DNA from: Burkholderiales bacterium
GTDB taxonomy: Bacteria > Pseudomonadota > Gammaproteobacteria > Burkholderiales > SG8-41
Reading direction: 5' to 3'
Assembly (NCBI GenBank): GCA_030684405.1
Contig: JAUXYA010000029.1
Location: 19,147-83,146, forward strand
DNA length: 64,000 nucleotides
Position numbers and translations under genes: made by a program. The notes below the pieces were generated by a model. It was not told the DNA's origin. It did not search any database and worked only from the letters and a program-made list of their open reading frames with translations. Positions within the stretch are counted from its first letter, which is position 1. Each line of letters begins with the position of its first letter. This document shows positions 788 to 54,829 of the stretch, in pieces.

Positions 788-1045
788 TCAGCGCTTTTCT
801 GCGGTCACGCGCCCCTGGGCATTCACATAGACCCGGTAGCGGTTGCCATTGCTGCAGGTGGCGAGGTGATCGTTGTTGCCTTGGGTGATCACAGAGACGA
901 CCTGTCCACAGGGCAGCCCCAGCAGCGAAATGGTTGCCGTCAGGTCTTTTGCCAGCGGACTCTTGGCATCCGCAGCGATGCCGGGCGCCGCGGCTATGAG
1001 CATTGCCGCACCCAGCAGGGCGCAGCCAAGGTTCAGTGTGTTCAT
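788..1045 (-). CDS. small exported protein of unknown function
   Basis: Internal Met of track ORF 788..1081. The N-terminus MNTLNLGCALLGAAMLIAAAPGIAADA looks like a signal peptide. A GGAGA-like RBS lies upstream. It sits 22 nt downstream of the lipoprotein gene on the same strand. Confidence 0.5.
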   Translation of the reverse strand: MNTLNLGCALLGAAMLIAAAPGIAADAKSPLAKDLTATISLLGLPCGQVVSVITQGNNDHLATCSNGNRYRVYVNAQGRVTAEKR

Positions 1046-9093: not shown

Positions 9094-9307
9094 GATCGAT
9101 CCTGACTGGAAAACCCGAAGTTAACATGGATGCAAAACGATGCATGCAGAACGCTGGTTCGAGGAAGCACTCTGGAGCCGTCACCGGACTTGGATGCGGT
9201 TCACATCAGCACAATGACAATGGGTTGTTGCTGCAAGTCGGACAATCGCTCGGCCCAGGACTTACGTTTCCCGAGGCATACCGTGCATACAGAAGCAGCA
9301 CGAATGC

Positions 9308-10433: not shown

Positions 10434-12800
10434 ATGCGTCTTATGAGTGTTTGGGTATACTGGCGCGCGATAAGAAGGGCGTCGAAGGGCGCTGGCACGC
10501 GGATGTTCCGCGGCATGAGGTCCGGTCAGTCAGGGGGAAGTTTGTCGTTCGATCACGGCAGTCAGGCCTTGGCGGGAGAACAGCCCGTACCCGGCGCGAG
10601 CAGATTGAAAACGGTACTTGGCGACCTCGCGGGCGGTTTTGCCGCAACGCTGATCGTCATACCGCAAGCCCTGGCCTTGGGCTTGCTGGCTTTTGCCGCG
10701 CTCGGTCCGGCATGGCTCGCGTTTGGACTGATTGCTGGCGTGCTGTCCTCTGTGGTCGGCAGCTTCGCCGCCGGTCTTGTCCCCGCAGGGCGTTGCCAGA
10801 TCATGGGCCCACGCACGTCCACCACGGTGGTTTTTGCGGGCATTCTGGTGACGCTGATCGCCCATCCGCTGCTGCAGACCGCGCAGGGCCCGGATGTCGT
10901 GCAAGTGCTCACGCTGGCCTTTGTCGCGGTGTTCCTGGCGGGCCTGTTTCAGATCGGATTCGGCTTGCTCGGCTTCGGGCGTGCCATCAAGTTCGTGCCG
11001 TATCCGGTGATCGCCGGTTTCATGAACGGCATCGCGTTGCTGATGTTCGTTTCGCAGATCGGTCCGGCGTTGGGCGTTGAAATCGGGAAGTCCGCCGCGA
11101 CGGTGCTGCAGGCGCCGGCGCCGAGCCATCTGGCGAGCCTGCTGGTGACGGCTGCCGTCATTGCCGCGGTGATTTTCAGTCCCCGCATCACTCGGCGTGT
11201 GCCGGCTCTGCTGTGCGGCCTGATTGCCGGTGTGGTGCTGCATTACCTGCTGGCCTGGATGTTGCCGGGCGCCGCCGGCCCGGTGATCGGCAAACTGCCA
11301 GAAATCGAGTTCGCGCCACGTGAGTTGGTCGCGATGGTCCGGCTTGCCGGGCGCGAAGAATTCATGGTCTGGGTGATGTTCCTGTTGCCCAGCGCGCTGT
11401 TGCTCGCTTCGGTGGCCTCGCTCGACGGCCTGCTCGCTGCGGTCAGCACCGATCCGGTGACGCGCAGCCGCCACGACAGCAACCGCCTGCTGCAGGGACA
11501 GGGCGCCGGCAGCGCGCTGGCGGCTGCGTTCGGCGCTCTGCCCCCGGTCACCGGCACCTATACCCGGGTAGCCAACTACCATAGCGGTGGCCGCACGCGG
11601 CTGTCGGCGCTGTTCCACGCCTTGCTGATGCTGGCCGCGGTATTGACATTGCAGCCGCTGGTGGCGCTCATCCCCGTCGCCGCCTTGGCCGGCGTCATCA
11701 TCTATACCGCGTGGACACTGATCGATCGCTGGACCCGCGATCTGCTGCGCCGCCTTGGCGCTGACGGCGTGGACCGGCGCGAAATCCTGCTCAACCTCGC
11801 GGTGGTCGCGGCTGTGGTGCTGTCGATGCTGCTGATCAACATCATGGTTGCCTTTGCCGTCGGCATCGCAGCAGCGGTTCTCCTGCTGTTGATCAAACTG
11901 AGCGGCTCGCCGGTACGCCGCGCGCTCGACGGCACGGTGCGCACTTCGCTCAAGGTGCGCAGCCCCGAGACAAGGGCACGGCTGCAGCCGCTGGCGCGGC
12001 AAATCCGCATTTTTGAGCTCGAGGGGACAATTTTCTTCGGCACGGCCGACCGACTGCAGAGCGACATCGAGAACCTGCCTGCCGGCACGCGTTACGTGGT
12101 CCTCGATTTTCGCCATGTCACCGATATCGACGCCAGCGGCGCGCGGGCGCTCGAAACCATCGGTTATACCGCTGCCCGCAGTGGCATACAGGTATTGTTG
12201 AGTCATCTGCGTGATGATGACACTCAGGGTCGTTTCCTCGCCGCACTCGGCATCGACGGCGCAGTGCAGCGACAATACTGGTTTCCCGATCTCGACCGTG
12301 CGCTGGAGTGGGCCGAGGACCGCCTGCTCGGGCAGGAGCGTTTTGAGGACGGCCCGGAACTCACACCGCAGGAGATGGCGCTGTTCGCAGGGTTGGACGC
12401 CGAGGAGGCCGTGCGGGTGATCGCGCTGCTGGAACGGCACGAACTTGCTCACGGCGAAGCGGTGTTCAAGGAAGGCGACGCCGGCGACCGCATGTACCTG
12501 ATCGCCCGCGGCGCGGTCAGCATCAAGGTGCGGCTCGCCGACGCCGCGCGCGCGCGCCGGCTGGCGACTTTCGTGCCCGGCGTTTTTTTTGGGGAGATGT
12601 CGATGATAGAAGGCGGACAGCGCTCAGCCGACGCCTTTGCCAAGGGTGATCACGTGGTGCTGTATTCGCTGGGCGCTGCACAATTGGCGCAGCTGGTGCG
12701 GCAATACCCGCTAACCGGCGTCAAGCTCTACCGCAACCTCAACCGGGAAATCGCCGCGCGTCTGCGCGTAACCAGCGAAGCGCTGCGTGCGCTCGAATAG
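10434..12800 (+). CDS. SulP-family anion transporter fused to STAS and cyclic-nucleotide-binding domains
   Basis: Polytopic N-terminal region (LAGGFAATLIVIPQALALG...), a STAS-like segment (IRIFELEGTIFFGTADRL), and a C-terminal cNMP-binding pattern (GDRMYLIARGAVSI...FFGEMSMI). The true start may be an internal Met near 10503 or 10515. Confidence 0.85.
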   Translation: MRLMSVWVYWRAIRRASKGAGTRMFRGMRSGQSGGSLSFDHGSQALAGEQPVPGASRLKTVLGDLAGGFAATLIVIPQALALGLLAFAALGPAWLAFGLIAGVLSSVVGSFAAGLVPAGRCQIMGPRTSTTVVFAGILVTLIAHPLLQTAQGPDVVQVLTLAFVAVFLAGLFQIGFGLLGFGRAIKFVPYPVIAGFMNGIALLMFVSQIGPALGVEIGKSAATVLQAPAPSHLASLLVTAAVIAAVIFSPRITRRVPALLCGLIAGVVLHYLLAWMLPGAAGPVIGKLPEIEFAPRELVAMVRLAGREEFMVWVMFLLPSALLLASVASLDGLLAAVSTDPVTRSRHDSNRLLQGQGAGSALAAAFGALPPVTGTYTRVANYHSGGRTRLSALFHALLMLAAVLTLQPLVALIPVAALAGVIIYTAWTLIDRWTRDLLRRLGADGVDRREILLNLAVVAAVVLSMLLINIMVAFAVGIAAAVLLLLIKLSGSPVRRALDGTVRTSLKVRSPETRARLQPLARQIRIFELEGTIFFGTADRLQSDIENLPAGTRYVVLDFRHVTDIDASGARALETIGYTAARSGIQVLLSHLRDDDTQGRFLAALGIDGAVQRQYWFPDLDRALEWAEDRLLGQERFEDGPELTPQEMALFAGLDAEEAVRVIALLERHELAHGEAVFKEGDAGDRMYLIARGAVSIKVRLADAARARRLATFVPGVFFGEMSMIEGGQRSADAFAKGDHVVLYSLGAAQLAQLVRQYPLTGVKLYRNLNREIAARLRVTSEALRALE

Positions 12801-12806
12801 CCCGGC

Positions 12807-13541
12807 CTAGTTCAGCGTTGCCGCAATCTTGCGGATGTCCTCCGGCGAGCGTTCACCGGCGAGCGGCGTGCCGGGCATCAGGTATTTGCCCATGGCGGCC
12901 AGACCGCCGACCAGCACCGGCTCGAAACCGGCATCGCGCACCAGCCGTGTGGCCACTGCGATCGCTGCGGGATCGTCGCCCGCCATCGGCATGCCCGAAC
13001 GCGGGCCCTGGCGCTGAGCGGCCTCTGCCATGCGGGCGGCGCCGACTGCATTGAAGGCGCGCACGATGCGCGCACCGGGCAGCAGTTCTGCTGATGCCAC
13101 TCCGGCACCCTTTTCACGCGCCCAGTTCGCAATCTCGCCGTCACGGTTGGGAAAAGGATTGCAGGTGTCGATCACCATCTTGCCCTTGAGTAGCGCACCG
13201 AGATCCTTGCCGAGCTGCGGAAGCGCGCCGTAGGGCACCGAGATCAGCAGGATTTCGCCGAAGGCTGCGGCCTCGCGCGGCGTGCCGGCACGGGCGTTGG
13301 TGCCGACAACCGCAGCGAGTTTTCGGTCGTGTTCGATGTCCAGCGAGGAAAACATCACTGTATGCCCGGCTTTGGCCCAGGACGTGCCCAGCGCGCTGCC
13401 GACACGACCCGAGCCGATGATGCCGATGCGCAGCGCAAGCGCGGCTTCGGCGGCGATGACGCGGGCAGGGACGGCCTGCGCGATTGCGGCGACAGCGGCA
13501 AGCTGCAGGAAGCGGCGACGGTCAGGTCTCGTTATATCCAT
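12807..13541 (-). CDS. NADP oxidoreductase, F420-dependent/NpdG-like Rossmann protein with twin-arginine signal
   Basis: DRRRFLQLAAVAAIAQA (Tat-like) followed by RIGIIGSGRVGSALG (dinucleotide fold) and ...IVRAFN... Confidence 0.75.
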   Translation of the reverse strand: MDITRPDRRRFLQLAAVAAIAQAVPARVIAAEAALALRIGIIGSGRVGSALGTSWAKAGHTVMFSSLDIEHDRKLAAVVGTNARAGTPREAAAFGEILLISVPYGALPQLGKDLGALLKGKMVIDTCNPFPNRDGEIANWAREKGAGVASAELLPGARIVRAFNAVGAARMAEAAQRQGPRSGMPMAGDDPAAIAVATRLVRDAGFEPVLVGGLAAMGKYLMPGTPLAGERSPEDIRKIAATLN

Positions 13542-20775: not shown

Positions 20776-20842
20776 ACGCTTGCTCCTGGGCCGGGAGTAG
20801 ACAGATGACCACGCTGCTCCCCGGCCACTGCGGAGGCAACAT

Positions 20843-20945
20843 GGTCAAAGGTCTTGCCAGGTCAGGAAACCGCCTGCGCCATGGCCGGATGGCCAAGCAT
20901 GTTGACGCAGACACCTCTCAGGAGGGCGGCTACTCCCCGATGACG
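20843..20945 (-). promoter_or_regulatory. yybP-ykoY-type Mn2+ riboswitch candidate in the GDT1 leader
   Basis: The minus-strand RNA contains, in order, GGGGAGUAGCC, GUCAACAUGC and GGCAAGACCUUUGAC. These match the three conserved blocks as I recall them from the L. lactis yoaB and E. coli mntP leaders. Supporting helices are GUCA/UGAC, CUGC/GCAG and a GC hairpin. Confidence 0.65.
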
Positions 20946-20997
20946 GCGCGATTCTACCTGCGCGCCGGAGATGGGTCCATGTGCGTGGAGCCGACGA

Positions 20998-45256: not shown

Positions 45257-46234
45257 ATGACATCCACGAGTAAACTGTTGTTGGCTGTCCTTTGTGTCCC
45301 GTTGTTCCAATTCGGCGGTGCGTCGGTGGCGATGGCGCAGGGGTATCCATCGAAAGCGATACGCGTTGTCTCGCCTTCGGGCGCCGGTGGTCCGGTCGAC
45401 ACGATATGTCGGGCGTTGATGCAGAACCTGAGTCAGGTTCTGGGTGAACAGATTTTCGTCGAGAACCGTGTTGGTGCGGCGGGCCTGATCGGCACCGAGC
45501 ACGTCACCAAGCAGCCTCCTGACGGTTACACGCTGCTCTTCGGTTTCTCTGGTCCGCTCGCGATTGTGCCGCATCTCAATCCCAACACGCCGTACGACCC
45601 TTTGCGTGATCTTGTGCCGATATCGATGGTGGCGGTTGCCCCGTACATCCTGCTTGTGCATCCCAGCGTGCCGGCAAAATCAGTTAAAGAGCTGATCGCG
45701 CTGGCAAAGGTACGTCCCGGCAGAGTCAACTTCGGTTCGGCGGGCACAGGTGTGGGCATACACATGGCGGGGGAGTTGTTGAAGGTTGCAGCAGGTATCG
45801 ACATCGTGCACGTGCCCTACAAGGGTGCCGCCCCCGCGGTCACTGCGCTTATCGCGGGTGAAATCGACATGATGTTTAATGGTATTTCGCCGTCCTTGCC
45901 GCATATCGGAGCGGGCAGGGTGCGGGCCCTGGCTGTCGGTGGTGCCAAGCGTTCGCCGCTACTGCCTGACCTGCCCACGGTCATGGAGGCAGGTTTCGAC
46001 TTCAACACCGAGGGCTGGTACGGAGTACTTGCACCCCGAGGCACACCACAGTCCGTGATCTCGACGTTGCACAAAGGAATCGTCAAGGCTCTCGAAAGCC
46101 AGAACCTGAAGGCTTTGTACACGAAACTCGGCGCAGAAGGAGTGGGCAACACGCCAGATGAATTTGCCCGGCTGATACGCGCGGAAGGTGCGTTGTGGGC
46201 CAAGGTAATCAAGGTTGCAGGCATCAAGATGTAG
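45257..46234 (+). CDS. Bug-family (TctC-like) substrate-binding protein
   Basis: GAGGAGGAG RBS, signal peptide, then YPSKAIRVVSPSGAGGPVDTICR... Confidence 0.9.
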   Translation: MTSTSKLLLAVLCVPLFQFGGASVAMAQGYPSKAIRVVSPSGAGGPVDTICRALMQNLSQVLGEQIFVENRVGAAGLIGTEHVTKQPPDGYTLLFGFSGPLAIVPHLNPNTPYDPLRDLVPISMVAVAPYILLVHPSVPAKSVKELIALAKVRPGRVNFGSAGTGVGIHMAGELLKVAAGIDIVHVPYKGAAPAVTALIAGEIDMMFNGISPSLPHIGAGRVRALAVGGAKRSPLLPDLPTVMEAGFDFNTEGWYGVLAPRGTPQSVISTLHKGIVKALESQNLKALYTKLGAEGVGNTPDEFARLIRAEGALWAKVIKVAGIKM

Positions 46235-46392: not shown

Positions 46393-47943
46393 TCAGTTTT
46401 TGGGGGCGACGTACGGAAAGCGTTTTCTGGCTTTGATGTCACTCGCCTTGGCGCTGCGCACATAGCGCGTATCGTCGTCGAAGCGTGCTTTGAATGACCA
46501 GTTCACGGGCATGCCAGCTCCCGCGGTTACCTTCTGGATGAAAAGCCGGCGGCGCTGGCTGCGCAGGATGTCGGCGGTGACCTTGTCGGGATCCCAATCC
46601 TTGAGAACATGTGCCAACAGGCGCTGTTCGACGTCCGCCACCGATTTCTGTCCTGACAGGTTATGGAGTTCATGCGGGTCATCACCCATATGGTAGAGCT
46701 GGCTGCCGTGACCATGAACATAAATGTATTTGTATGGCCCCTGTCTTGCCATGCGGCAGGGCGCCAGCACGCCGTCAGCAGTGTACTCGCTGAGCACCAG
46801 ATCATTCCATGCTTCCGGCACCTTTCCTTCAAGCAGTGGCACCAGGCTTGTACCGTCAGGCTCATCGACGTATTCCTGTTTTGTACCCGTGCTGCCGAGG
46901 TCCAGTAACGTGGGCAGCAGATCGATCAGAGACACGACCTGCGGGCAACGGCGTGGGGCGTAGCGCCCCGGCGCACTGACGATCATGGGAACCCGGCACG
47001 ACCATTCATAGAACGTAGACTTGAACCACATGCCGCGTTCGCCCATCATTTCGCCGTGATCGCCGACAAAGATCACCACAGTATTGCGATCCAGTTCCGT
47101 TTGACGCATCGCCTCCATGATGCGCCCGACCTTGTCGTCGATATAGCTGATCATTCCGTAGTAGGCGTGCCGCGCATTGCGCACCAGATCATCAGTAATC
47201 ACATATTGATCGCTGCGCCTGGCCTGCTCCAGCCACCGCGTCTGCATGTCCTGTTCTGCCTCTGCCAGCGGACCTACTGCAGGCATGTCTATGTCTTCAT
47301 CCCGATAGCGCTGCCAATGCTCCAGCGGGGCGGTAAAAGGCGCATGGGGGTGAGTAAAAGATACGGTCAGAAAAAACGGCTGTTGCTCCTGAGTGCGGGC
47401 CAAATCATGGATTTTCTGTATCGCACAGTGCTCGACCTCGTCATCGTAGTCAATCTGCAGGCTGCGTATGCAATGGCCGGCATCAAGCACTGTTTTCAGG
47501 GTGGCGCCTGCCGGGCTGCTCGGAACGGTTTCCGACCAGTCGGCCGTCAGGGCAAAATCAGCCCCGATGATGTCGGTAGTCAGCCGCTCATGGTAACCGT
47601 GCAACTGGTCCGGCCCGATGAAATGCATCTTGCCGCAAAGACTGGTGTGGTAACCGAGCGCGCGGAGGTAGTGTGGCAGTGTGACCCAAGACGCTGAAAA
47701 CTCCGCAGCATTGTCGTATGCACCTACACGTGTCGCGTAGAGCCCTGTCATCATGGAGAACCGGCTGGGCCCGCATACCGGGAAATTGCAGTAGGCCGCG
47801 TCAAACACAACGCCACTCGAAGCCAGCGATTCCAGGTGTGGAGTCTTGACAATCGGGTGTCCGTATACAGGCAGTGCAGGGGCGGCGATCTGGTCCGCCA
47901 TCACCAGCAGGATATTGGGTCGATTCTGATTTGTGCTCTTCAT
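46393..47943 (-). CDS. betC: choline-sulfatase-type (BetC-like) Cys-type sulfatase, no signal peptide
   Basis: NILLVMADQ, the CGPSR formylglycine motif, GKMHFIGPDQLHGYHERLTTDI and LTVSFTHPHAPF; 516 aa. It resembles S. meliloti BetC as I recall it. Confidence 0.75.
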   Translation of the reverse strand: MKSTNQNRPNILLVMADQIAAPALPVYGHPIVKTPHLESLASSGVVFDAAYCNFPVCGPSRFSMMTGLYATRVGAYDNAAEFSASWVTLPHYLRALGYHTSLCGKMHFIGPDQLHGYHERLTTDIIGADFALTADWSETVPSSPAGATLKTVLDAGHCIRSLQIDYDDEVEHCAIQKIHDLARTQEQQPFFLTVSFTHPHAPFTAPLEHWQRYRDEDIDMPAVGPLAEAEQDMQTRWLEQARRSDQYVITDDLVRNARHAYYGMISYIDDKVGRIMEAMRQTELDRNTVVIFVGDHGEMMGERGMWFKSTFYEWSCRVPMIVSAPGRYAPRRCPQVVSLIDLLPTLLDLGSTGTKQEYVDEPDGTSLVPLLEGKVPEAWNDLVLSEYTADGVLAPCRMARQGPYKYIYVHGHGSQLYHMGDDPHELHNLSGQKSVADVEQRLLAHVLKDWDPDKVTADILRSQRRRLFIQKVTAGAGMPVNWSFKARFDDDTRYVRSAKASDIKARKRFPYVAPKN

Positions 47944-47952
47944 TCTCTGGCC

Positions 47953-48915
47953 TCAGTTGATCTTGATGTCGGCCACCTTCACCAGCTTTCCGTAGCGCTC
48001 ATATTCCTCGGCCACCAGCTGGCGGAACTTATCCTGACTCATGGTCAGTGGTTCCACGCCTCGTCGCAGCATGTCCGCGCGCGCATCCGGCGTGTCGATG
48101 ACCTTGTTGATTTCGCTGTTGAGCTTTCTCACCAGGGTCGCTGGAACTTTTGCGGGCGCAAATATTCCGAACCAGTTGCCAGCGGTGAACCCGGGCAACC
48201 CCGCCTCGCCGATAGTCGGCAGATCTGGAAGCAGTGCGGAACGTTCCGGACTGCCCACTGCCAGCGCACGTAGCCGGCCTGCCTTCAGCTGTGGCAACGT
48301 GGTGATCGCGGCATCAAACAGGACATGAATCTGGCCGGAAATCAGATCAACCATGGCCGGTCCGGCGCCCTTGTACGGCACATGCACCAGATCGATTCCA
48401 GCAGTGTGCTTGAACATCTCGCCCACCATATGGGTGGTCGTCCCGTTGCCCGCGGATCCGATATTCAGTGTTCCCGGTTTGGATTTTGCCAACGCGATCA
48501 GGTCTTTTACCGAGCGGGCATCGACCTTGGGATTGACATTCAACACGAAGGTCACACGCGTAAACGGCGCAATCGGAACAAAATCCCTGCGCGTGTCGTA
48601 GGGCAATTTGGCGGACAGGTGGGGGGTGATGGCAAACGCCGCTGCGCTGCCTAGCAACAGCGTGTACCCGTCCGGTGCTGCCTTGGCAACCAGGTCCGTG
48701 CCGATAATGCCTCCGGCGCTCGGTCTGTTGTCGACAATTACCACCTGCCCAAGCGATTCGCCGAGCCGCTGCGCCAGCAGCCGCGCCAGAACGTCGCTGG
48801 CGCCGCCCGGCGCAAACGCGACGATGAGCCTGATCGGTTTGGTGGGGTACTGCTGGGCTGAAGCCGACGCGGCAAGCAGAAAACTTCCGATGATGCACAA
48901 CAGTAATTGGCGCAT
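47953..48915 (-). CDS. Bug-family (TctC-like) substrate-binding protein
   Basis: Signal peptide followed by YPTKPIRLIVAFAPGGASDVLARL...DNRPSAGG...PDGYT. Its stop lies 9 nt upstream of the sulfatase start. Confidence 0.9.
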   Translation of the reverse strand: MRQLLLCIIGSFLLAASASAQQYPTKPIRLIVAFAPGGASDVLARLLAQRLGESLGQVVIVDNRPSAGGIIGTDLVAKAAPDGYTLLLGSAAAFAITPHLSAKLPYDTRRDFVPIAPFTRVTFVLNVNPKVDARSVKDLIALAKSKPGTLNIGSAGNGTTTHMVGEMFKHTAGIDLVHVPYKGAGPAMVDLISGQIHVLFDAAITTLPQLKAGRLRALAVGSPERSALLPDLPTIGEAGLPGFTAGNWFGIFAPAKVPATLVRKLNSEINKVIDTPDARADMLRRGVEPLTMSQDKFRQLVAEEYERYGKLVKVADIKIN

Positions 48916-48976: not shown

Positions 48977-50212
48977 TCAGTCTGTTGCGTGGTGCAGCAT
49001 GGCATGGGGTACCAGATTCATTTCTCCGATCCGCCGCAGCGCTGGATCGTCCATCGCTTTCAGCAGCCTGCGCAGCTCGATATGAAGGCGCCCGGCCGCC
49101 GTATCCCCGAAAAACCAGTTATCCACGGCGATGCCGGTAGCACGCCCCGGCCGGGCGAGTGCGGCCTGGTAGTAATAATGTTTAAGATCATCAGCACACA
49201 GCTTGATCGCACGCGCCATCGGCTCTCCCGTCACGAAAGACGGGATACCCTGATTGTGCAGATACGAGAAAAGGTGATCGGCAATCTGCCTGGGAGACAA
49301 AGTGGTCAGACCATCCAGCCGCCTGCCCTTCTGCCGCCGCACCGATTCCTCGTACCACGGTTGCAGCAGAACAATCTCCTGATGCAGGCGCTGCCGGAAT
49401 GCTTCCGGGCTGTCGGGTGCAACTTTCGGGCCGCTGAAGTTTACCGGGCACACCCAGCCTTGCTGGTCGTCTGGCGTGTCCGTTGCGACATCGGGTGCTG
49501 ACTCCGGAAAGTCTTCGATCAGAGGGCCATCGCAACGTTCCAGCAGGCGCAGCGCGGCTGTCAGTACCCGCCGCTGAAAATCCGGCGAGTCGGGTGCGCC
49601 GAAGGGGCGACCAAACTGGAAAGGCACGTGCAGCGCACGCGGCGGCTTCATCTGCGTGATGTGCTCGCGGACCAGACTCACCACGACGGTCGGTATGCCC
49701 TGGCGCTCGATGAAATGTGCAAGCCCGCTCACGGCGCGCGTGCACTGCGGTCAGACCCCGGCAAGGACGACACCGTTTACCTTGTCCTCCAGCAACAGTC
49801 CGGCGATGTCGAGTGCCACGGCCTGATGCGCATCAGGTGGCGTGGCCCCCATGAATGCGTAGTGGTAACCCGCAATGCTGTCTATGAAGCCATCGACGGC
49901 AAGGTCCCGCAGACGATCAATGGGAAACACCACATTGAGATCTTGCTGAAATCCCGTCCGGTCGAAGTTGCTCGAGATGTGGCTCATGATCAGCTCATCC
50001 GCCCCGGTATCGGCTGGAATGATGCGATATTCGCCAACGCCCAGTGCAAACGGCTGGTCAGTGCGCCTGTGCAATCCGGAGGTCGTGATGATGGCGATAC
50101 GCCGTTGCGCCAGCGGTGGGCCCGTGCGGCATTCCGTGGATCCGTAAGCAGGCAGTTCCTGGCTCAGGATGCGGTCGCGGGCAGCTTGCCCCATGTCGTG
50201 CAGGTACACCAT
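48977..50212 (-). CDS. PrdB/GrdB (reductase selenoprotein B) family protein with in-frame TGA (candidate selenoprotein, 411 codons)
   Basis: Track ORFs 49751..50212 and 48977..49732 are in the same frame. The TGA at 49751-49753 is the only interruption. The junction reads VVLAGV-[TGA]-PQCTRAVSGLAHFIERQGIPTVVV. An AGGAGGA RBS lies upstream of the ATG at 50212. Confidence 0.65.
49717..49745 (-). promoter_or_regulatory. SECIS-like bulged hairpin starting 6 nt after the in-frame UGA
   Basis: GUGCA...UGCAC outer stem. The inner stem GC-(G bulge)-CCG pairs with CGGGC, with a UGAG loop. Confidence 0.35.
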
Positions 50213-50346
50213 ACTGATCCTCCTCTTACCATATATTGATGTTTTTTCGGTTATTGCCTAAGCGTATTACGTATAGCGATGCTAGACATAGCAACTGCTG
50301 CTGTGACTGTAATCATCAGCCCCCACAGTGAGAGAGGGTAGCCTCT

Positions 50347-51333
50347 TCACTGCATCCCGAATGTATAGCGGCTGCCGACGTTCGAATACACCACCCGGTC
50401 CGGCATCTGCTGGCGCAGCATGTCGATGAAACGCTCGCCGGTGCAGTGCATCGGCACGATCACGTCGGGGTTGATCGCCTGCAGCTCTTTCAGCGTGTGC
50501 TGCAGGTAATCCACGTGCGAAGGGCCGAGATGGAAACCGCCCATCACCGCATGCACCTTGTCGACGTTGGCGGCCTTCATTGCGCTCCGCACCGTGTTGA
50601 TGATGCCGGTATGACCGCAGGATGAGATTACCACCAGGCCCTTGCCCTTGACGATGTAGCAGGTGGCGTGTTCGTCGGGGTGGGTGTCCTTGACCAGATT
50701 GCCTGCGCGTTCGGCCTCGGTGAAATGATCGTCCACCACCAGCGAGCCGCCGGTGACCGTCTCGAAGGACTCACGCTCGATGTAGCCCGAGGTGAAGGCA
50801 CCGTCCAGCGCCTGCGGCTGCGGGCAGCACACCGGCATCACCTTCTGCGCCTCCAGCGCCGCGCGGTCAAGCGTGCACCAGGGCATCGGATCGCCGCCTT
50901 CCTTGATCCACTTGGTGCGGAACACCGTCTCGCCGCCGACGTAGAGCGCGATGTCGTCGCGCATCCGGCCGCGGTGCTGTTTTATGAAACCCTGCAGCCC
51001 GCCGAAGTGGTCAAGGTGGCCGTGGGAGAGGATCAGGCCGTTGATCTTGGAGGGCTCGATGTTCAGCAGTTCGAAATTGCGATTGATGATCTCCGGCGTG
51101 TAACCGAAGTCGAGCACGTACTGCGCCTTCGCGCCGTCCTTCTCCGAGGCGAGGTGCAGCGACAGTCCCCACTCGCAGGCGAAGGTGCTCTCCGGCCGGC
51201 CGTAGATGCGGCCAACGTGTTCGATCTGTACATGCGGGTGGTTCATGCGCGGCAGGAAACGCTCGTAGCGGGAATCGACGAGGACGCGCACGGTGAGAGC
51301 ATCGACGACGGGGGCGGTGAAGGGTGTGGCCAT
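50347..51333 (-). CDS. MBL-fold metallo-hydrolase (COG1237-like)
   Basis: LILSHGHLDHFGGL (HxHxDH), ...VVISSCGHTGIINTV..., GGFHL and PMHCTG. Confidence 0.85.
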   Translation of the reverse strand: MATPFTAPVVDALTVRVLVDSRYERFLPRMNHPHVQIEHVGRIYGRPESTFACEWGLSLHLASEKDGAKAQYVLDFGYTPEIINRNFELLNIEPSKINGLILSHGHLDHFGGLQGFIKQHRGRMRDDIALYVGGETVFRTKWIKEGGDPMPWCTLDRAALEAQKVMPVCCPQPQALDGAFTSGYIERESFETVTGGSLVVDDHFTEAERAGNLVKDTHPDEHATCYIVKGKGLVVISSCGHTGIINTVRSAMKAANVDKVHAVMGGFHLGPSHVDYLQHTLKELQAINPDVIVPMHCTGERFIDMLRQQMPDRVVYSNVGSRYTFGMQ

Positions 51334-51518: not shown

Positions 51519-53489
51519 TCAGTTGAGGGGCCAGGGCATTTCGACAACGGATTGCAACAGGCCAGTCGGGTATTGCAGCACGAACAAATGCCCGAATAGA
51601 CTCATGACCACGATTGCGGCCAGTGCGCTGGCGATGGCCCGGGACCAGCGCACGCCGGCTTTCACCCTCAAAAAAGCCGCGATGTAGATAAATACGCCGA
51701 GGATGAAACCGAGCAGGCCGATCGCCGCCAGCAGTGCCAGTATCCAGCCCTGGAAATGCAGATCGCCATGGACAGGCCGGTTGTCGCCGCCCCAGTCGCG
51801 CTCGCTGTCGAAGAACACGTAGTCGGGCCGCTTGCGGCTGAACAGCGCCACGGCAGCGATCAGCAGCGTCAGGGTGATCAGTGTCACCGCGACCGGAAAT
51901 ACCTTGCCCAGAAACTGGAGATTCCAGGTGTCGTAGATAGCGTACAGGCAGATCGCGATCAGCATCCCCAGAAACACGGCCTGCGGCGCCTTGTGGATCG
52001 GGGCATGCGGCCCTGTTGCCGTGAGCGGGTCGCGCTGCACCTTCATGCGCAGTGCGAGGTAGACGGAGACGGCAATCAGCGCCAGGATCAGCAGCACGCC
52101 ACCGCGCTGGAGGAAAGAAGCGCCGTAGACCTGGATTGACTGGTAGACGGAGGCATCCAGGCGCATCGACAGCACGAAGCCGATCAGGAAGGCCGGCCGC
52201 GACCAGCCGAAGCGTTTCATGTACATCCCGAAAATGCCGAGCACGAACAGGGCGATCAGATCATCCCAGTCACGCGTGGCCTGAAACGCCGCGAAGTAGA
52301 CGATGACGATCATGAAGGGTGCCACCAGCAGGAAAGGCACCAGCGTTATGCGCGAAATCGGCCGCGCCAGCACCAGGCAGATTCCTGCACCGATGACATT
52401 GGCGATGGCCAGCGACCAGATAATGATAAAAGTCAGGTCGAGATGGCGCTCCATCATGCCGATTCCCGGCTCCACGCCGATCAGGATGAGTGCGCCAAGA
52501 AACAGCGCCATGCTGCCGGACCCGGGGATGCCGAACATCAGCGTGGGGATCAGGGCGCCGCCGTTGTCCGCATTGTTGGATGCTTCCGGACCGATCACTC
52601 CGCGGATGTCGCCCTTGCCGAACTGCGAGCGGTCTTTCGCGGACTGCATGGCGTGGGCGTAGGCCACCCAGTTGGTGACCGCGCCGCCGAGGCCCGGCAG
52701 TGCGCCGATGAACACACCGAGCGCGGAACAACGCAGCACCAACCACTTGTGCTTGAGCGTTTCGCGGAATCCCTGGAACGTGCCGGCGCCGAGTTCGGGG
52801 ATGGACGAAATGCTCGTCCGCTTGCGCATGACTTCCACGATCTCGGGGATCGCGAACATGGCGAGGCCGACGATCACCAGCGGCAGGCCGTCGCTGAGGT
52901 AAAGCGTGTCGAAGGTCAGGCGCTCTTCCGCGGTGGCCGGTGCCGCGCCGATGCTGCCGAACAAGAGGCCCATGCCGCACATGATCAGGCCCTTGATCGC
53001 GCTGGTTCCCGTCAGCATGCCGACCATCGTCAGCGCGAGCACGACCAGCATCAGCTGCTCGCCGAATCCCACGGCCAGTATCAGCGGCCGCGCGAACTGG
53101 ATGGCCAGGGTCAGCATCAGCGCGCCGAACAGCCCGCCGAGCAGCGAAGCGGAGAAGGCGGCGCCCAGCGCGCGGGCGGCCTCGCCTTTGCGCGCGAGCG
53201 GGTGACCGTCCATGATGGTCGCCTGGGCGCTCGAGGTGCCCGGGATGCCTATCAGCACGGCGGGGAAGGTATCCGAGGTGTTGGTGACGGCAAGCAGGCC
53301 GATCATCATCGGCAGCACCAGCGTCGGATCGCCGCCGTAGACGAAGGGCAGCAGCAGTGACAGCGCGGCGATGCCGCCGAGGCCCGGCAATATGCCGACC
53401 ACCAGGCCGAGCAGCACCCCGCCCAAAAGAAAGAGCAGGTGCTGCACGCTGATCAGCGTGGACAGCGCCTGCAGGAGGTCAGCTTGCAT
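51519..53489 (-). CDS. tctA: tripartite tricarboxylate transporter permease TctA with a C-terminal TctB-like four-helix extension (fusion)
   Basis: The first ~495 aa are TctA-like (ILPGLGG..., GALPGLGG..., IPGSGS). A further ~160 aa carry four hydrophobic helices where a separate TctB gene would normally be. Confidence 0.85.
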   Translation of the reverse strand: MQADLLQALSTLISVQHLLFLLGGVLLGLVVGILPGLGGIAALSLLLPFVYGGDPTLVLPMMIGLLAVTNTSDTFPAVLIGIPGTSSAQATIMDGHPLARKGEAARALGAAFSASLLGGLFGALMLTLAIQFARPLILAVGFGEQLMLVVLALTMVGMLTGTSAIKGLIMCGMGLLFGSIGAAPATAEERLTFDTLYLSDGLPLVIVGLAMFAIPEIVEVMRKRTSISSIPELGAGTFQGFRETLKHKWLVLRCSALGVFIGALPGLGGAVTNWVAYAHAMQSAKDRSQFGKGDIRGVIGPEASNNADNGGALIPTLMFGIPGSGSMALFLGALILIGVEPGIGMMERHLDLTFIIIWSLAIANVIGAGICLVLARPISRITLVPFLLVAPFMIVIVYFAAFQATRDWDDLIALFVLGIFGMYMKRFGWSRPAFLIGFVLSMRLDASVYQSIQVYGASFLQRGGVLLILALIAVSVYLALRMKVQRDPLTATGPHAPIHKAPQAVFLGMLIAICLYAIYDTWNLQFLGKVFPVAVTLITLTLLIAAVALFSRKRPDYVFFDSERDWGGDNRPVHGDLHFQGWILALLAAIGLLGFILGVFIYIAAFLRVKAGVRWSRAIASALAAIVVMSLFGHLFVLQYPTGLLQSVVEMPWPLN

Positions 53490-53517: not shown

Positions 53518-54615
53518 TTACTCGATCGTGACGTTGTGATCTGTCTTGAAATAGTTTTTGAGCCAGGCCCAAGCCTCGGGCTTGAAGGAGGTGGCGTCCT
53601 TGATGATGGGCCTTGCGGCCTCACCGATGAACTGCGGATAACCTTCGATGATCTGCCCGGCCTGCTTCTCGAACTCCGGATCCTTCAGAATATTGGATAC
53701 CGCCGTGCGCCAGGCTTCGACGATCGGCCGCGGCGTGCCCGCGGGCAGGAAAATGCCCTTGTTGAGCATGGTCATCATCTTGTTGACCGATTGCCAGGCG
53801 TCGAAGGCGGGCCCGGAGGGCTTCTTGCCGAACATCAGCTCGTAGGCTTCGCCGACGTGGGGCAGGTCGGGCGCGTTCGGATCGCGAATGAGCGTGCCCT
53901 TGGCGTCGGTGATGCCCATCGTGTACAGCGGCACCGCCTTGCCGGCCGTGACCAGCTTGGAAGCGGCTCCCTGGTAGCCGGGCATCGAATCGTAATTGAT
54001 GTTCAGCTCGTTACGCTCGAAGGCGAGTCGAACAGGGCCGCGGTTCATGCCCCAAACATACTTGGGCTTGAGGCCGAGCAGTTCGAAGCTGATTACGGTG
54101 CGCGCCTCTCCTGCGCTCGCGCTTTGCCCGCCGAAGACCAGCGGCTGGCCCTTGAGCTTGGCGATGTCCTTGGGACTGCGCAGGCCGAGTGCGGGTGTGG
54201 AATACACGACTGCGCCCTGTGGCGACAGCAGCACCGGAATCCATTTGTCCAGCTCGAACTTCACCCGCGAGCGCTCGAACACGAAACTGCCGACGGTGGT
54301 GGCCGAGATCACGATGGCATGGGTGCCGTCTGCTACCGCGCGTTCCTGGAAACGGTTGGCGCCGGGAATCGAGCGCGCACCGGGAACATTGAGCACGATG
54401 ATGCTGGGATTACCCGGCAGGTGTTTCTCAAGGAAAGGCTGCAGCGCGCGGATATAGACGTCCGAACCGCCACCCGGCGCGAACGGCACGGTTACCAGGA
54501 TGCGCTTGCCGGAGAAATCGACCTTCTGCGCAGAGGCCTGTGTTGCTGGCAGCAGGGCTGCGCAGGCAACGGTACCCAGCGCAACGATTTTTTTCAACGA
54601 AAAATGCAGACTCAT
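53518..54615 (-). CDS. divergent TctC-like periplasmic substrate-binding protein (365 aa)
   Basis: Signal peptide followed by ILVTVPFAPGGGSDVYIRAL...NVPGARSIPGANRF...ADGTHA. This keeps the Bug core pattern but is longer and more divergent. Confidence 0.65.
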   Translation of the reverse strand: MSLHFSLKKIVALGTVACAALLPATQASAQKVDFSGKRILVTVPFAPGGGSDVYIRALQPFLEKHLPGNPSIIVLNVPGARSIPGANRFQERAVADGTHAIVISATTVGSFVFERSRVKFELDKWIPVLLSPQGAVVYSTPALGLRSPKDIAKLKGQPLVFGGQSASAGEARTVISFELLGLKPKYVWGMNRGPVRLAFERNELNINYDSMPGYQGAASKLVTAGKAVPLYTMGITDAKGTLIRDPNAPDLPHVGEAYELMFGKKPSGPAFDAWQSVNKMMTMLNKGIFLPAGTPRPIVEAWRTAVSNILKDPEFEKQAGQIIEGYPQFIGEAARPIIKDATSFKPEAWAWLKNYFKTDHNVTIE

Positions 54616-54829
54616 GTGTTTCTCCTCGATTCAATAGTGATGAATTGGATCAGCAGCAAAATGTGCAGCTGTCCTGACGCTCTGCGTCGTCTGAAAAGTC
54701 TTGTCGGTCAATGGCCGGGCCTCACTCTAGCCCGTGTCGTCCGGGGGGTCAATTGGCGCAAGGGCACAGTGCCGGAGGGCGAAAGTACAAGCCGTGGCAT
54801 CAAGCCTATCGCATGGCCGGTCAAGCACT

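Follow-up and report, generated by a model that had tools for sequence, protein, structure and literature searches.

The gene and its reading frame

We analyzed a 64,000-nucleotide (nt) stretch of DNA from a Burkholderiales bacterium (assembly GCA_030684405.1, contig JAUXYA010000029.1, positions 19,147–83,146 of the forward strand; the whole stretch is hereafter the window), in which two minus-strand open reading frames (ORFs), at 49751–50212 and 48977–49732, lie in the same frame and appear to form one gene for a selenocysteine (Sec)-containing protein related to the PrdB and GrdB reductases. Their sole interruption is a TGA at 49751–49753, which is codon 154. The six codons separating the two called ORFs encode P-Q-C-T-R-A and include Cys157, and the read-through context is ...VNGVVLAGV-TGA-PQCTRAVSGLAHFIERQGIPT... 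The complete coding sequence (48977–50212, minus strand) has 411 codons plus a stop, starting at the ATG at 50212 and ending with the TGA at 48977–48979, and the sequence AGGAGGA at 50218–50224 on the same strand reads as a ribosome-binding site 5 nt upstream of the ATG. Both the common frame of the ORFs, joined only by the TGA with P-Q-C-T-R-A between them, and the strong ribosome-binding site had been pointed out in an initial annotation of this DNA; translation confirms the first, and the second is found where the gene begins.

Read as selenocysteine, the TGA supplies Sec154 as the first residue of a putative U-P-Q-C redox motif, and the TGC codon at 49742–49744 encodes Cys157, the presumed resolving cysteine of U-x-x-C. 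Upstream and downstream of the motif, profile matches, tblastn alignments and an AlphaFold2 (AF2) model of a homologue define a PrdB/GrdB-like catalytic domain of alpha/beta fold (residues ~33–232; 49517–50116, minus strand), which is followed by a family-specific all-helical domain (residues 236–411; 48980–49507, minus strand) recognized by its conservation in the family and absent from PrdB and GrdB. As a whole, these observations and those below are best explained by one 411-residue, two-domain selenoprotein gene in which TGA154 specifies Sec, and which belongs to a known PrdB-like family but is not a D-proline reductase; we put the probability of this reading at roughly 0.88. Judging from the sequence comparisons, the most likely fate of TGA154 is recoding to selenocysteine through the usual bacterial pathway.

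Profile searches used the joined protein with the stop replaced by cysteine. Pfam GRDB (PF07355) matches residues 34–151 with 33.2 bits (gathering score 22), ending two positions before the end of the model, and NCBIfam PrdB (TIGR04483) matches residues 33–227 (E = 3.9e-31, 108.3 bits). Curated prdB genes on annotated plasmids, from Ligilactobacillus, Enterococcus, Terrisporobacter and Peptoclostridium, align by tblastn over residues 33–230 in a single piece at ~34% identity. The curated prdB of P. acidaminophilum (L082, 5917–6630) has a TGA at codon 151, and in a MAFFT alignment U151 of this PrdB shares one column with codon 154 of the window gene (VFTAG-U-GTCHRS and VLAGV-U-PQCTRA, respectively); the cysteine three residues further on, that of U-G-T-C in PrdB, is aligned with Cys157. 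The PrdB of C. difficile likewise has Sec at position 151 (PMC11229817). The initial annotation had given a PrdB context of VLTAG-U-GTC followed by GIPT, which is close to the real VFTAG-U-GTCHRS...GIPT of P. acidaminophilum, and it had rightly placed codon 154 near the Sec of PrdB. Cysteine fills the Sec column in the natural full-length homologues P0017 (from Falsiroseomonas selenitidurans), P0057, P0115, P0125 and P0068, and natural Cys homologues are continuous single polypeptides of 395–414 amino acids (aa). The TGA thus aligns to the conserved redox residue, Sec in PrdB and Cys in these homologues, and with the GRDB and PrdB profile matches this upholds the earlier proposal of a PrdB/GrdB-family selenoprotein with Sec at U-x-x-C.

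Relatives were present in 330 genomes when one genome per species of the Genome Taxonomy Database (GTDB) was scanned, and 80 loci were retrieved for analysis; the first alignment (A1) was too diverse for locus retrieval and a second (A2) was used for it. The TGA is kept at the Sec column in all 80 fetched loci, or in 92 of 92 copies when tandem paralogues and the window gene are counted. The family motif is V-U-P-x-C-T-R-A-V and Cys157 is invariant. Carriers are found among the Alpha-, Gamma- and Deltaproteobacteria (Desulfobacterota), SAR324, Chloroflexota, Gemmatimonadota and Spirochaetales, and are largely aerobic marine and soil proteobacteria. A comparison of orthologues had been recommended in the initial annotation, and it shows TGA throughout the fetched loci and Cys in the full-length homologues that lack it.

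Tandem family paralogues, each with its own TGA and selenocysteine insertion sequence (SECIS), are present in at least 14 related genomes (loci L005, L006, L011, L019, L020, L021, L026, L028, L030, L031, L033, L037, L073 and L079; in L020, for example, at 9214 and 10460), an arrangement suggesting that the paralogues form a hetero-oligomer or differ in substrate specificity. Among the species representatives, L001 (JANNEV010000326.1) is nearest to the window gene, with 67% identity and an identical SECIS; it lies on a 1579-bp contig in a bin labelled as a Gemmatimonadaceae metagenome-assembled genome, and is either misbinned or a horizontally transferred gene. There is also a second GRDB-domain subtype of ~300 aa without the helical extension, on plasmid p546-2 of Roseomonas haemaphysalidis (L083, 5863–6771). 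The motif of this shorter subtype is N-U-P-V-C-H-Q in reads of the Global Ocean Sampling (GOS) survey (supplement file 3) and N-C-P-V-C-H-Q on the Roseomonas plasmid, where the gene adjoins selO.

Relationship to the PrdB and GrdB reductases

The window protein shares with PrdB of Clostridium sticklandii and C. difficile a homologous fold over ~200 residues (at the ~34% identity given above), the same Sec column, the x-x-C and the GIPT segment, and also a SECIS immediately 3′ of the UGA. It differs in its length (411 aa versus ~240 aa), in the ~175-residue helical extra, in having no local PrdA or PrdH, and in a host that is not a Stickland fermenter. The relationship to GrdB, GrdF and GrdH (PF07355, TIGR01918) is of a similar kind: the PrdB-like domain matches their C-terminal part, at profile positions 222–373, and has the U-x-x-C motif, but the N-terminal ~220 residues of GrdB are missing and TIGR01918 scores 53 bits against a cutoff of 65.45. 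No GRDA-type or Grd-like family is among the recurrent neighbor domains at the 80 loci, a survey of domains that included no direct sequence search for GrdA, GrdC or GrdD.

PrdB ends near residue 232 of 411, and the ~175 residues beyond it are conserved across the family, in keeping with the earlier remark that the C-terminal extension is foreign to PrdB. Pfam, NCBIfam and the PDB contain no match to the C-terminal domain. As a query of its own against 1.84 billion representative sequences it finds 427 clusters, 180 of them at E ≤ 1e-10, and among the best 150 of the 427 clusters it occurs in this architecture only, with one full-length (Cys or correctly called) protein. The AF2 model of the natural Cys homologue P0017 (mean predicted local distance difference test score, pLDDT, 92.1; predicted template-modeling score, pTM, 0.90) forms one compact unit with a helical C-terminal part, and its pTM indicates that the helical domain packs on the N-terminal domain in the predicted structure. 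PDB sequence searches with the protein and with the family profile gave only noise (GST omega at E = 0.12 and a designed protein at E = 0.19). We considered whether the C-terminal domain might be a permuted version of the GrdB N-terminal domain and rejected this, as there is no Pfam GRDB match outside residues 34–151.

PrdA belongs to the same proprotein family as GrdE. In curated prd operons prdA, prdH and prdB are adjacent, and PrdB functions only in a complex with pyruvoyl-PrdA, which PrdH matures (PMC11229817). Curated Terrisporobacter PrdA and PrdH, used as tblastn queries, have no hits in the window or the 80 loci, which are local neighborhoods amounting to ~1.2 Mb, and the PrdB query in the same search matches all 81 loci; the initial annotation had already noted that the window contains no prdA partner. 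By these sequence criteria the family member is not a D-proline reductase, because it scores 108.3 bits against a TIGR04483 equivalog cutoff of 300, has no PrdA or PrdH nearby, and carries the extra helical domain.

It could still be argued that the gene is a bona fide D-proline reductase prdB whose PrdA and PrdH are encoded elsewhere in the genome. Its best NCBIfam match is PrdB, at the E-value given above, the Sec column and the U-x-x-C are those of PrdB, and JGI labels the N-terminal stubs 'D-proline reductase PrdB'. This is nonetheless very unlikely, given a score far under the equivalog cutoff, the lack of PrdA and PrdH around 80 homologues as well as in the window (in contrast to the curated operons), a conserved domain of ~175 residues that PrdB does not have, hosts that are largely aerobic marine and soil proteobacteria, and the 235 such 'PrdB' genes that the GOS data held.

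The family is not new. In the Sargasso Sea selenoproteome 'PrdB' ranked third in abundance among the families, with 42 selenoproteins bearing UXXC (Zhang, Fomenko & Gladyshev 2005, PMC1088965), and under pfam07355 the GOS selenoproteome had 235 forms with Sec and 110 with Cys, versus one GrdA (Zhang & Gladyshev 2008, PMC2398784). Under '#Proline reductase', supplement file 3 of the GOS study has 59 occurrences of CTRAV and read-through translations with U-P-x-C-T-R-A-V and the same C-terminal extension. JCVI_READ_929035, for instance, is of the same UxxC, pfam07355 class and shows GLAH..E..G, PPRAL and GRP.G together with the extension motifs GRTTVG... and WFW.ET.AG... The window copy differs from the marine alphaproteobacterial members in belonging to a soil or freshwater Burkholderiales-type organism, and in its place within a transporter and choline-sulfatase operon unseen in the marine loci. 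The ocean surveys took the D-proline reductase function from homology, an assignment that falls below the equivalog cutoff here. Reviews of 2022 and 2026 list only 'D-proline reductase (TIGR04483)', and we found no paper that treats the two-domain, PrdA-less proteins as a family apart or suggests what they do. The family is therefore one long predicted as a selenoprotein, mostly proteobacterial and marine, reported as among the most abundant of its kind in metagenomes of the surface ocean, misnamed, and functionally orphan. The initial annotation had listed the extension, the absent partner and the aerobic host as unusual, but these are the normal state of a large family already catalogued as 'Proline reductase PrdB'.

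A conserved hairpin and the probable recoding of TGA154

Several observations call for caution in reading TGA154 as Sec in a single gene. In the GC-rich window another 44 pairs of same-frame ORFs, with 100 codons or more to either side, are likewise separated by one TGA; the hairpin that follows TGA154 has a folding energy no better than that of dinucleotide shuffles (z = 0.56); RNAalifold, run without a supplied structure, recovers just three apical pairs of it; and neither selA, selB, selC and selD nor other selenoprotein genes are present within the 64-kb window. In view of the 44 split pairs and the insignificant folding energy the pattern alone is not evidence, and the comparative data carry the case; single-sequence folding energy was accordingly not used. 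Since RNAalifold found only the apical pairs, the fuller hairpin was tested explicitly by pair counts.

The candidate SECIS hairpin lies at 49717–49745 (minus strand), with an outer stem of 49741–49745 paired with 49717–49721, an inner stem of 49734–49739 paired with 49723–49728, and an apical loop, CGUGA, at 49729–49733. The GUGCA/UGCAC hairpin appears in the minimum-free-energy fold and begins 5 nt after the TGA. It had been placed correctly at 49717–49745, just 3′ of the TGA, in the initial annotation, although the spacing was given there as 6 nt and the loop as UGAG.

Conservation was examined in an ungapped alignment (A3) of 57 columns and 90 sequences. The SECIS core, ACGCGCGCCGUNGGCGGGCU, is nearly invariant in nucleotides across this alignment and that of the window does not depart from the family consensus; G25 never varies and U26 is more than 90% conserved. 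Pair counts support the inner stem, in which columns 18–23 pair with columns 29–34 (window positions 49739–49734 with 49728–49723). The pair 18–34 is G-C in 76 rows, C-G in six, G-U in two, and A-U and U-G in one each, and the pair 19–33 is C-G in 82 rows and A-U in one; the three apical pairs hardly vary. For covariation the score is 0.089, compared with a shuffle mean of 0.063 (none of 500 shuffles reaches the observed value) and at most 0.057 in slid registers. The outer GUGCA/UGCAC stem is partly conserved, with the pair 12–40 present in 10 of 89 rows and the pair 16–36 in 33 of 89, and we rejected it as a family feature since its pairs form in a minority of rows.

A sharper test, independent of the pair counts, comes from synonymous sites in 85 genes aligned by codon. 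Elsewhere in the gene, conserved codons with four- or six-fold degeneracy mostly have an entropy of ~1.2–2.3 bits, and the apical-loop codon, Val161, falls in this range at 1.26 bits. In the stem arms the values are 0.66 bits for Thr158, 0.33 for Arg159, 0.31 for Ala160, 0.21 for Gly162 and 0.12 for Gly163, such that the collapse of synonymous codon entropy is confined to the stem arms.

The fdhF SECIS of Escherichia coli is an experimentally defined bacterial SECIS, and the hairpin of the window resembles it in lying directly 3′ of the UGA, in a similar distance to the loop, in a G-U within the loop and in an interrupted upper stem. With the U of the UGA numbered 1, the CGUGA loop is at nt 21–25 with G-U at 22–23, and the GGUC loop of fdhF is at nt 22–25 with G-U at 23–24. 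The two are unlike in that their primary sequences are unrelated, the loop has five nt rather than four, and a 1×1 G·G internal mismatch takes the place of the bulged U of fdhF. Covariation, synonymous-site constraint and the fdhF-like geometry together support the view that the hairpin is constrained as an RNA and is a candidate SECIS, as had been proposed from the single sequence. In the standard route of recoding, the hairpin, starting 5 nt past the UGA, would present its G-U apical loop, ~20 nt downstream, to SelB carrying Sec-tRNA(Sec).

Natural Cys forms bear on the same point. The core is gone in two of three (L085 and L088), the second of which has the synonymous changes ACA, CGT and GCT. 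The third (L086, 6030–7139, encoding P0125) keeps a perfect SECIS core, TGCACGCGCGCCGTGGGCGGGCTGGCACAT, beside a TGC codon, and seems to have exchanged Sec for Cys very recently, leaving the SECIS as a fossil. Rfam at gathering thresholds has no match at the locus, a result that is uninformative for a gene-specific bacterial SECIS. The sole Rfam match in the window is a Mn2+ riboswitch (yybP-ykoY, RF00080) at 20782–20950 (minus strand), with 88 bits against a gathering score of 45.

Components of the Sec machinery adjoin the family gene in relatives. ARAGORN identifies a tRNA-Sec within ~3 kb of it at L018, L019, L020, L024, L027, L029, L030, L038 and L047, and probably also at L032, where a 98-nt tRNA near SelD (816–913, minus strand), whose 2-nt anticodon ARAGORN leaves undetermined, is likely to be a tRNA-Sec of atypical form. 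Neighbor clustering and profiles at the 80 loci place SelD near the gene at 11 loci, SelB at six and SelA at four. The SelD neighbors are fusions with a pyridine-nucleotide-disulfide oxidoreductase and score 270 bits with TIGR00476 (cutoff 125). One such fusion, with TIGR03169 at the N-terminus followed by TIGR00476, is at 11271–13496 (minus strand) in L018, and equivalents are present in L019, L020, L024, L027, L029, L030 and L063; the order at those loci is the family gene, the SelD fusion directly beside it, then tRNA-Sec, SelB and SelA. In L020, L027 and L029 genes for an acyl-CoA dehydrogenase, a molybdenum-cofactor (MoCo) subunit of the xanthine dehydrogenase family and a glutathione S-transferase (GST)-like protein precede the Sec gene on the same strand. 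For the source organism of the window, we infer Sec competence.

Gene callers divide the gene at the TGA throughout the public databases, as the initial annotation had anticipated, and hundreds of 153-aa and ~250-aa halves are deposited there. Searches with the joined protein return more than 100 matches that are ~250-aa fragments spanning just the C-terminal 61%, and the N-terminal domain finds 1,914 matches, the best 120 of which are nearly all exactly 153 aa long. The 153-aa stubs are named 'D-proline reductase (dithiol) PrdB' (or the JGI name given above) or 'selenoprotein B glycine/betaine/sarcosine/D-proline reductase', and the C-terminal halves 'hypothetical protein'. The called starts of the 3′ half are not conserved, being M, V or L at four different columns, and in the window the second start is a GTG at 49732, which encodes Val161 within the SECIS loop and is not preceded by a Shine-Dalgarno sequence. 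Purifying selection acts on both halves: against the two closest relatives, L090 and L091, both of which have the TGA and the hairpin, the ratio of nonsynonymous to synonymous substitution rates (dN/dS) is ~0.1 throughout (0.079 and 0.119, respectively, in the N-terminal half, and 0.125 and 0.091 in the C-terminal half), with dS up to ~1.05–1.07 (0.46–1.07 in the downstream half).

The database entries could be taken at face value, with a 153-residue product ending at the TGA and a separate 251-residue product initiated at the GTG at 49732, and dN/dS alone cannot separate two such proteins from read-through. We give this a very slim chance, as the six intervening codons are conserved as amino acids, including the invariant Cys157, and the PrdB-homologous domain runs to residue ~230, well beyond the split. 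The Cys forms are single chains, the AF2 model of P0017 is one compact unit (pTM 0.90), and the second start is conserved in neither position nor codon, lacks a Shine-Dalgarno sequence and sits in the SECIS loop. A nonsense pseudogene, produced by a change of a Cys codon into TGA and followed by decay of what lies downstream, might be suspected from the absence of sel genes in the window and from how common TGA-split same-frame ORF pairs are in this DNA. It is highly improbable, for the TGA is present in all 80 species-level relatives and in the closest relatives of the window, the SECIS is undamaged and matches the family consensus exactly, and the downstream half has a dN/dS of 0.09–0.13 at a dS of 0.46–1.07, which effectively refutes decay. 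Decoding of the UGA as something other than Sec, through genome-wide reassignment or near-cognate read-through, can practically be dismissed, since TGA terminates both tctC (47953–47955) and the Sec gene itself (48977–48979), selC, selB, selA and selD adjoin the gene in relatives, and Cys in the non-TGA homologues makes a classic Sec/Cys pair.

Operon context and possible function

The selenoprotein gene lies within a putative minus-strand operon. The first gene (53518–54615) encodes a divergent TctC/Bug-like solute-binding protein of 365 aa with no Pfam or NCBIfam hit, which was assigned from a PDB match to TctC (6hke, E = 6e-6) and from synteny in L090; the sole promoter-like site on the operon strand, a weak one, is at 54724–54752. 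It is followed by a TctA large permease with a TctB-like C-terminal part (51519–53489; Pfam TctA E = 2e-114, and TctB at 19 bits, under the cutoff of 29.1), and by a metallo-beta-lactamase (MBL)-fold metallo-hydrolase immediately upstream of the Sec gene (50347–51333; Pfam Lactamase_B 33.8 bits; PDB 2p4z, which is uncharacterized, E = 8e-20), whose position is kept in L090. Downstream of the Sec gene by 61 nt is a second binding protein, TctC (47953–48915; Pfam TctC E = 5.7e-76), and 9 nt after this is the last gene of the operon, which codes for a choline-sulfatase, BetC (46393–47943; TIGR03417 563 bits, cutoff 433); both are kept in L090 and L091. The operon thus holds two binding proteins, and a third tctC gene is on the opposite strand at 45257–46234. 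The cluster is conserved in relatives at 82–89% identity, and the link to choline sulfatase is confined to the window's own lineage. Predicted cotranscription of the Sec gene with a tripartite tricarboxylate transporter (TTT), the MBL hydrolase and choline sulfatase offers a lead toward the catabolism of an imported sulfated or quaternary-amine-type compound. Across the 80 loci the recurrent neighbors other than sel genes are found at just three to six loci each (GST-like, CoA-transferase III, MoCo hydroxylase, TauD and peptidase M19). We also weighed linkage to a betaine/proline ABC transporter, which occurs at 13 loci but lies a median of 6 kb away, and discarded the idea as too weak.

A mechanism can be outlined by analogy with PrdB and GrdB, in which the protein may act as a stand-alone Sec-dependent reductase. 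The Sec154 selenolate would attack an electrophilic carbon of a small substrate and cleave a carbon-heteroatom bond, Cys157 would resolve the selenoether to a Se-S bond, and a cellular thiol system (thioredoxin or glutathione) would re-reduce this bond, with the helical domain supplying the substrate pocket that PrdA or GrdE gives in the Stickland enzymes. Such a pyruvoyl-independent, single-polypeptide Sec reductase, with the helical domain replacing PrdA/GrdE, might in aerobic bacteria cleave the carbon-heteroatom bond of an osmolyte-type compound, meaning a quaternary amine, a sulfonium or a product of sulfate-ester catabolism. We regard this as a possible but rather doubtful proposal. It is disfavored by the purely analogical origin of the catalytic steps, by the lack of a constant operon partner across the 80 loci, where many copies look monocistronic, and by a Foldseek search of the P0017 model against the PDB that yielded nothing better than E = 0.04 (template-modeling score 0.24), so that no structural analogy is drawn for either domain.

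The product and the name of the gene are wrong in most databases, with hundreds of records split into a PrdB stub and a hypothetical protein, and the SECIS core frozen across the family provides a simple signature for correcting the split annotations. The window contributes a non-marine representative, set in a compact and conserved catabolic operon through which the role of this abundant orphan selenoenzyme can be approached experimentally. If the proposed reductase activity is true, Stickland-type selenium chemistry would operate widely outside the anaerobic fermenters, and the operon of the window, with its TTT transporter, MBL hydrolase, Sec enzyme and choline sulfatase, would place the family in a concrete pathway for the first time.

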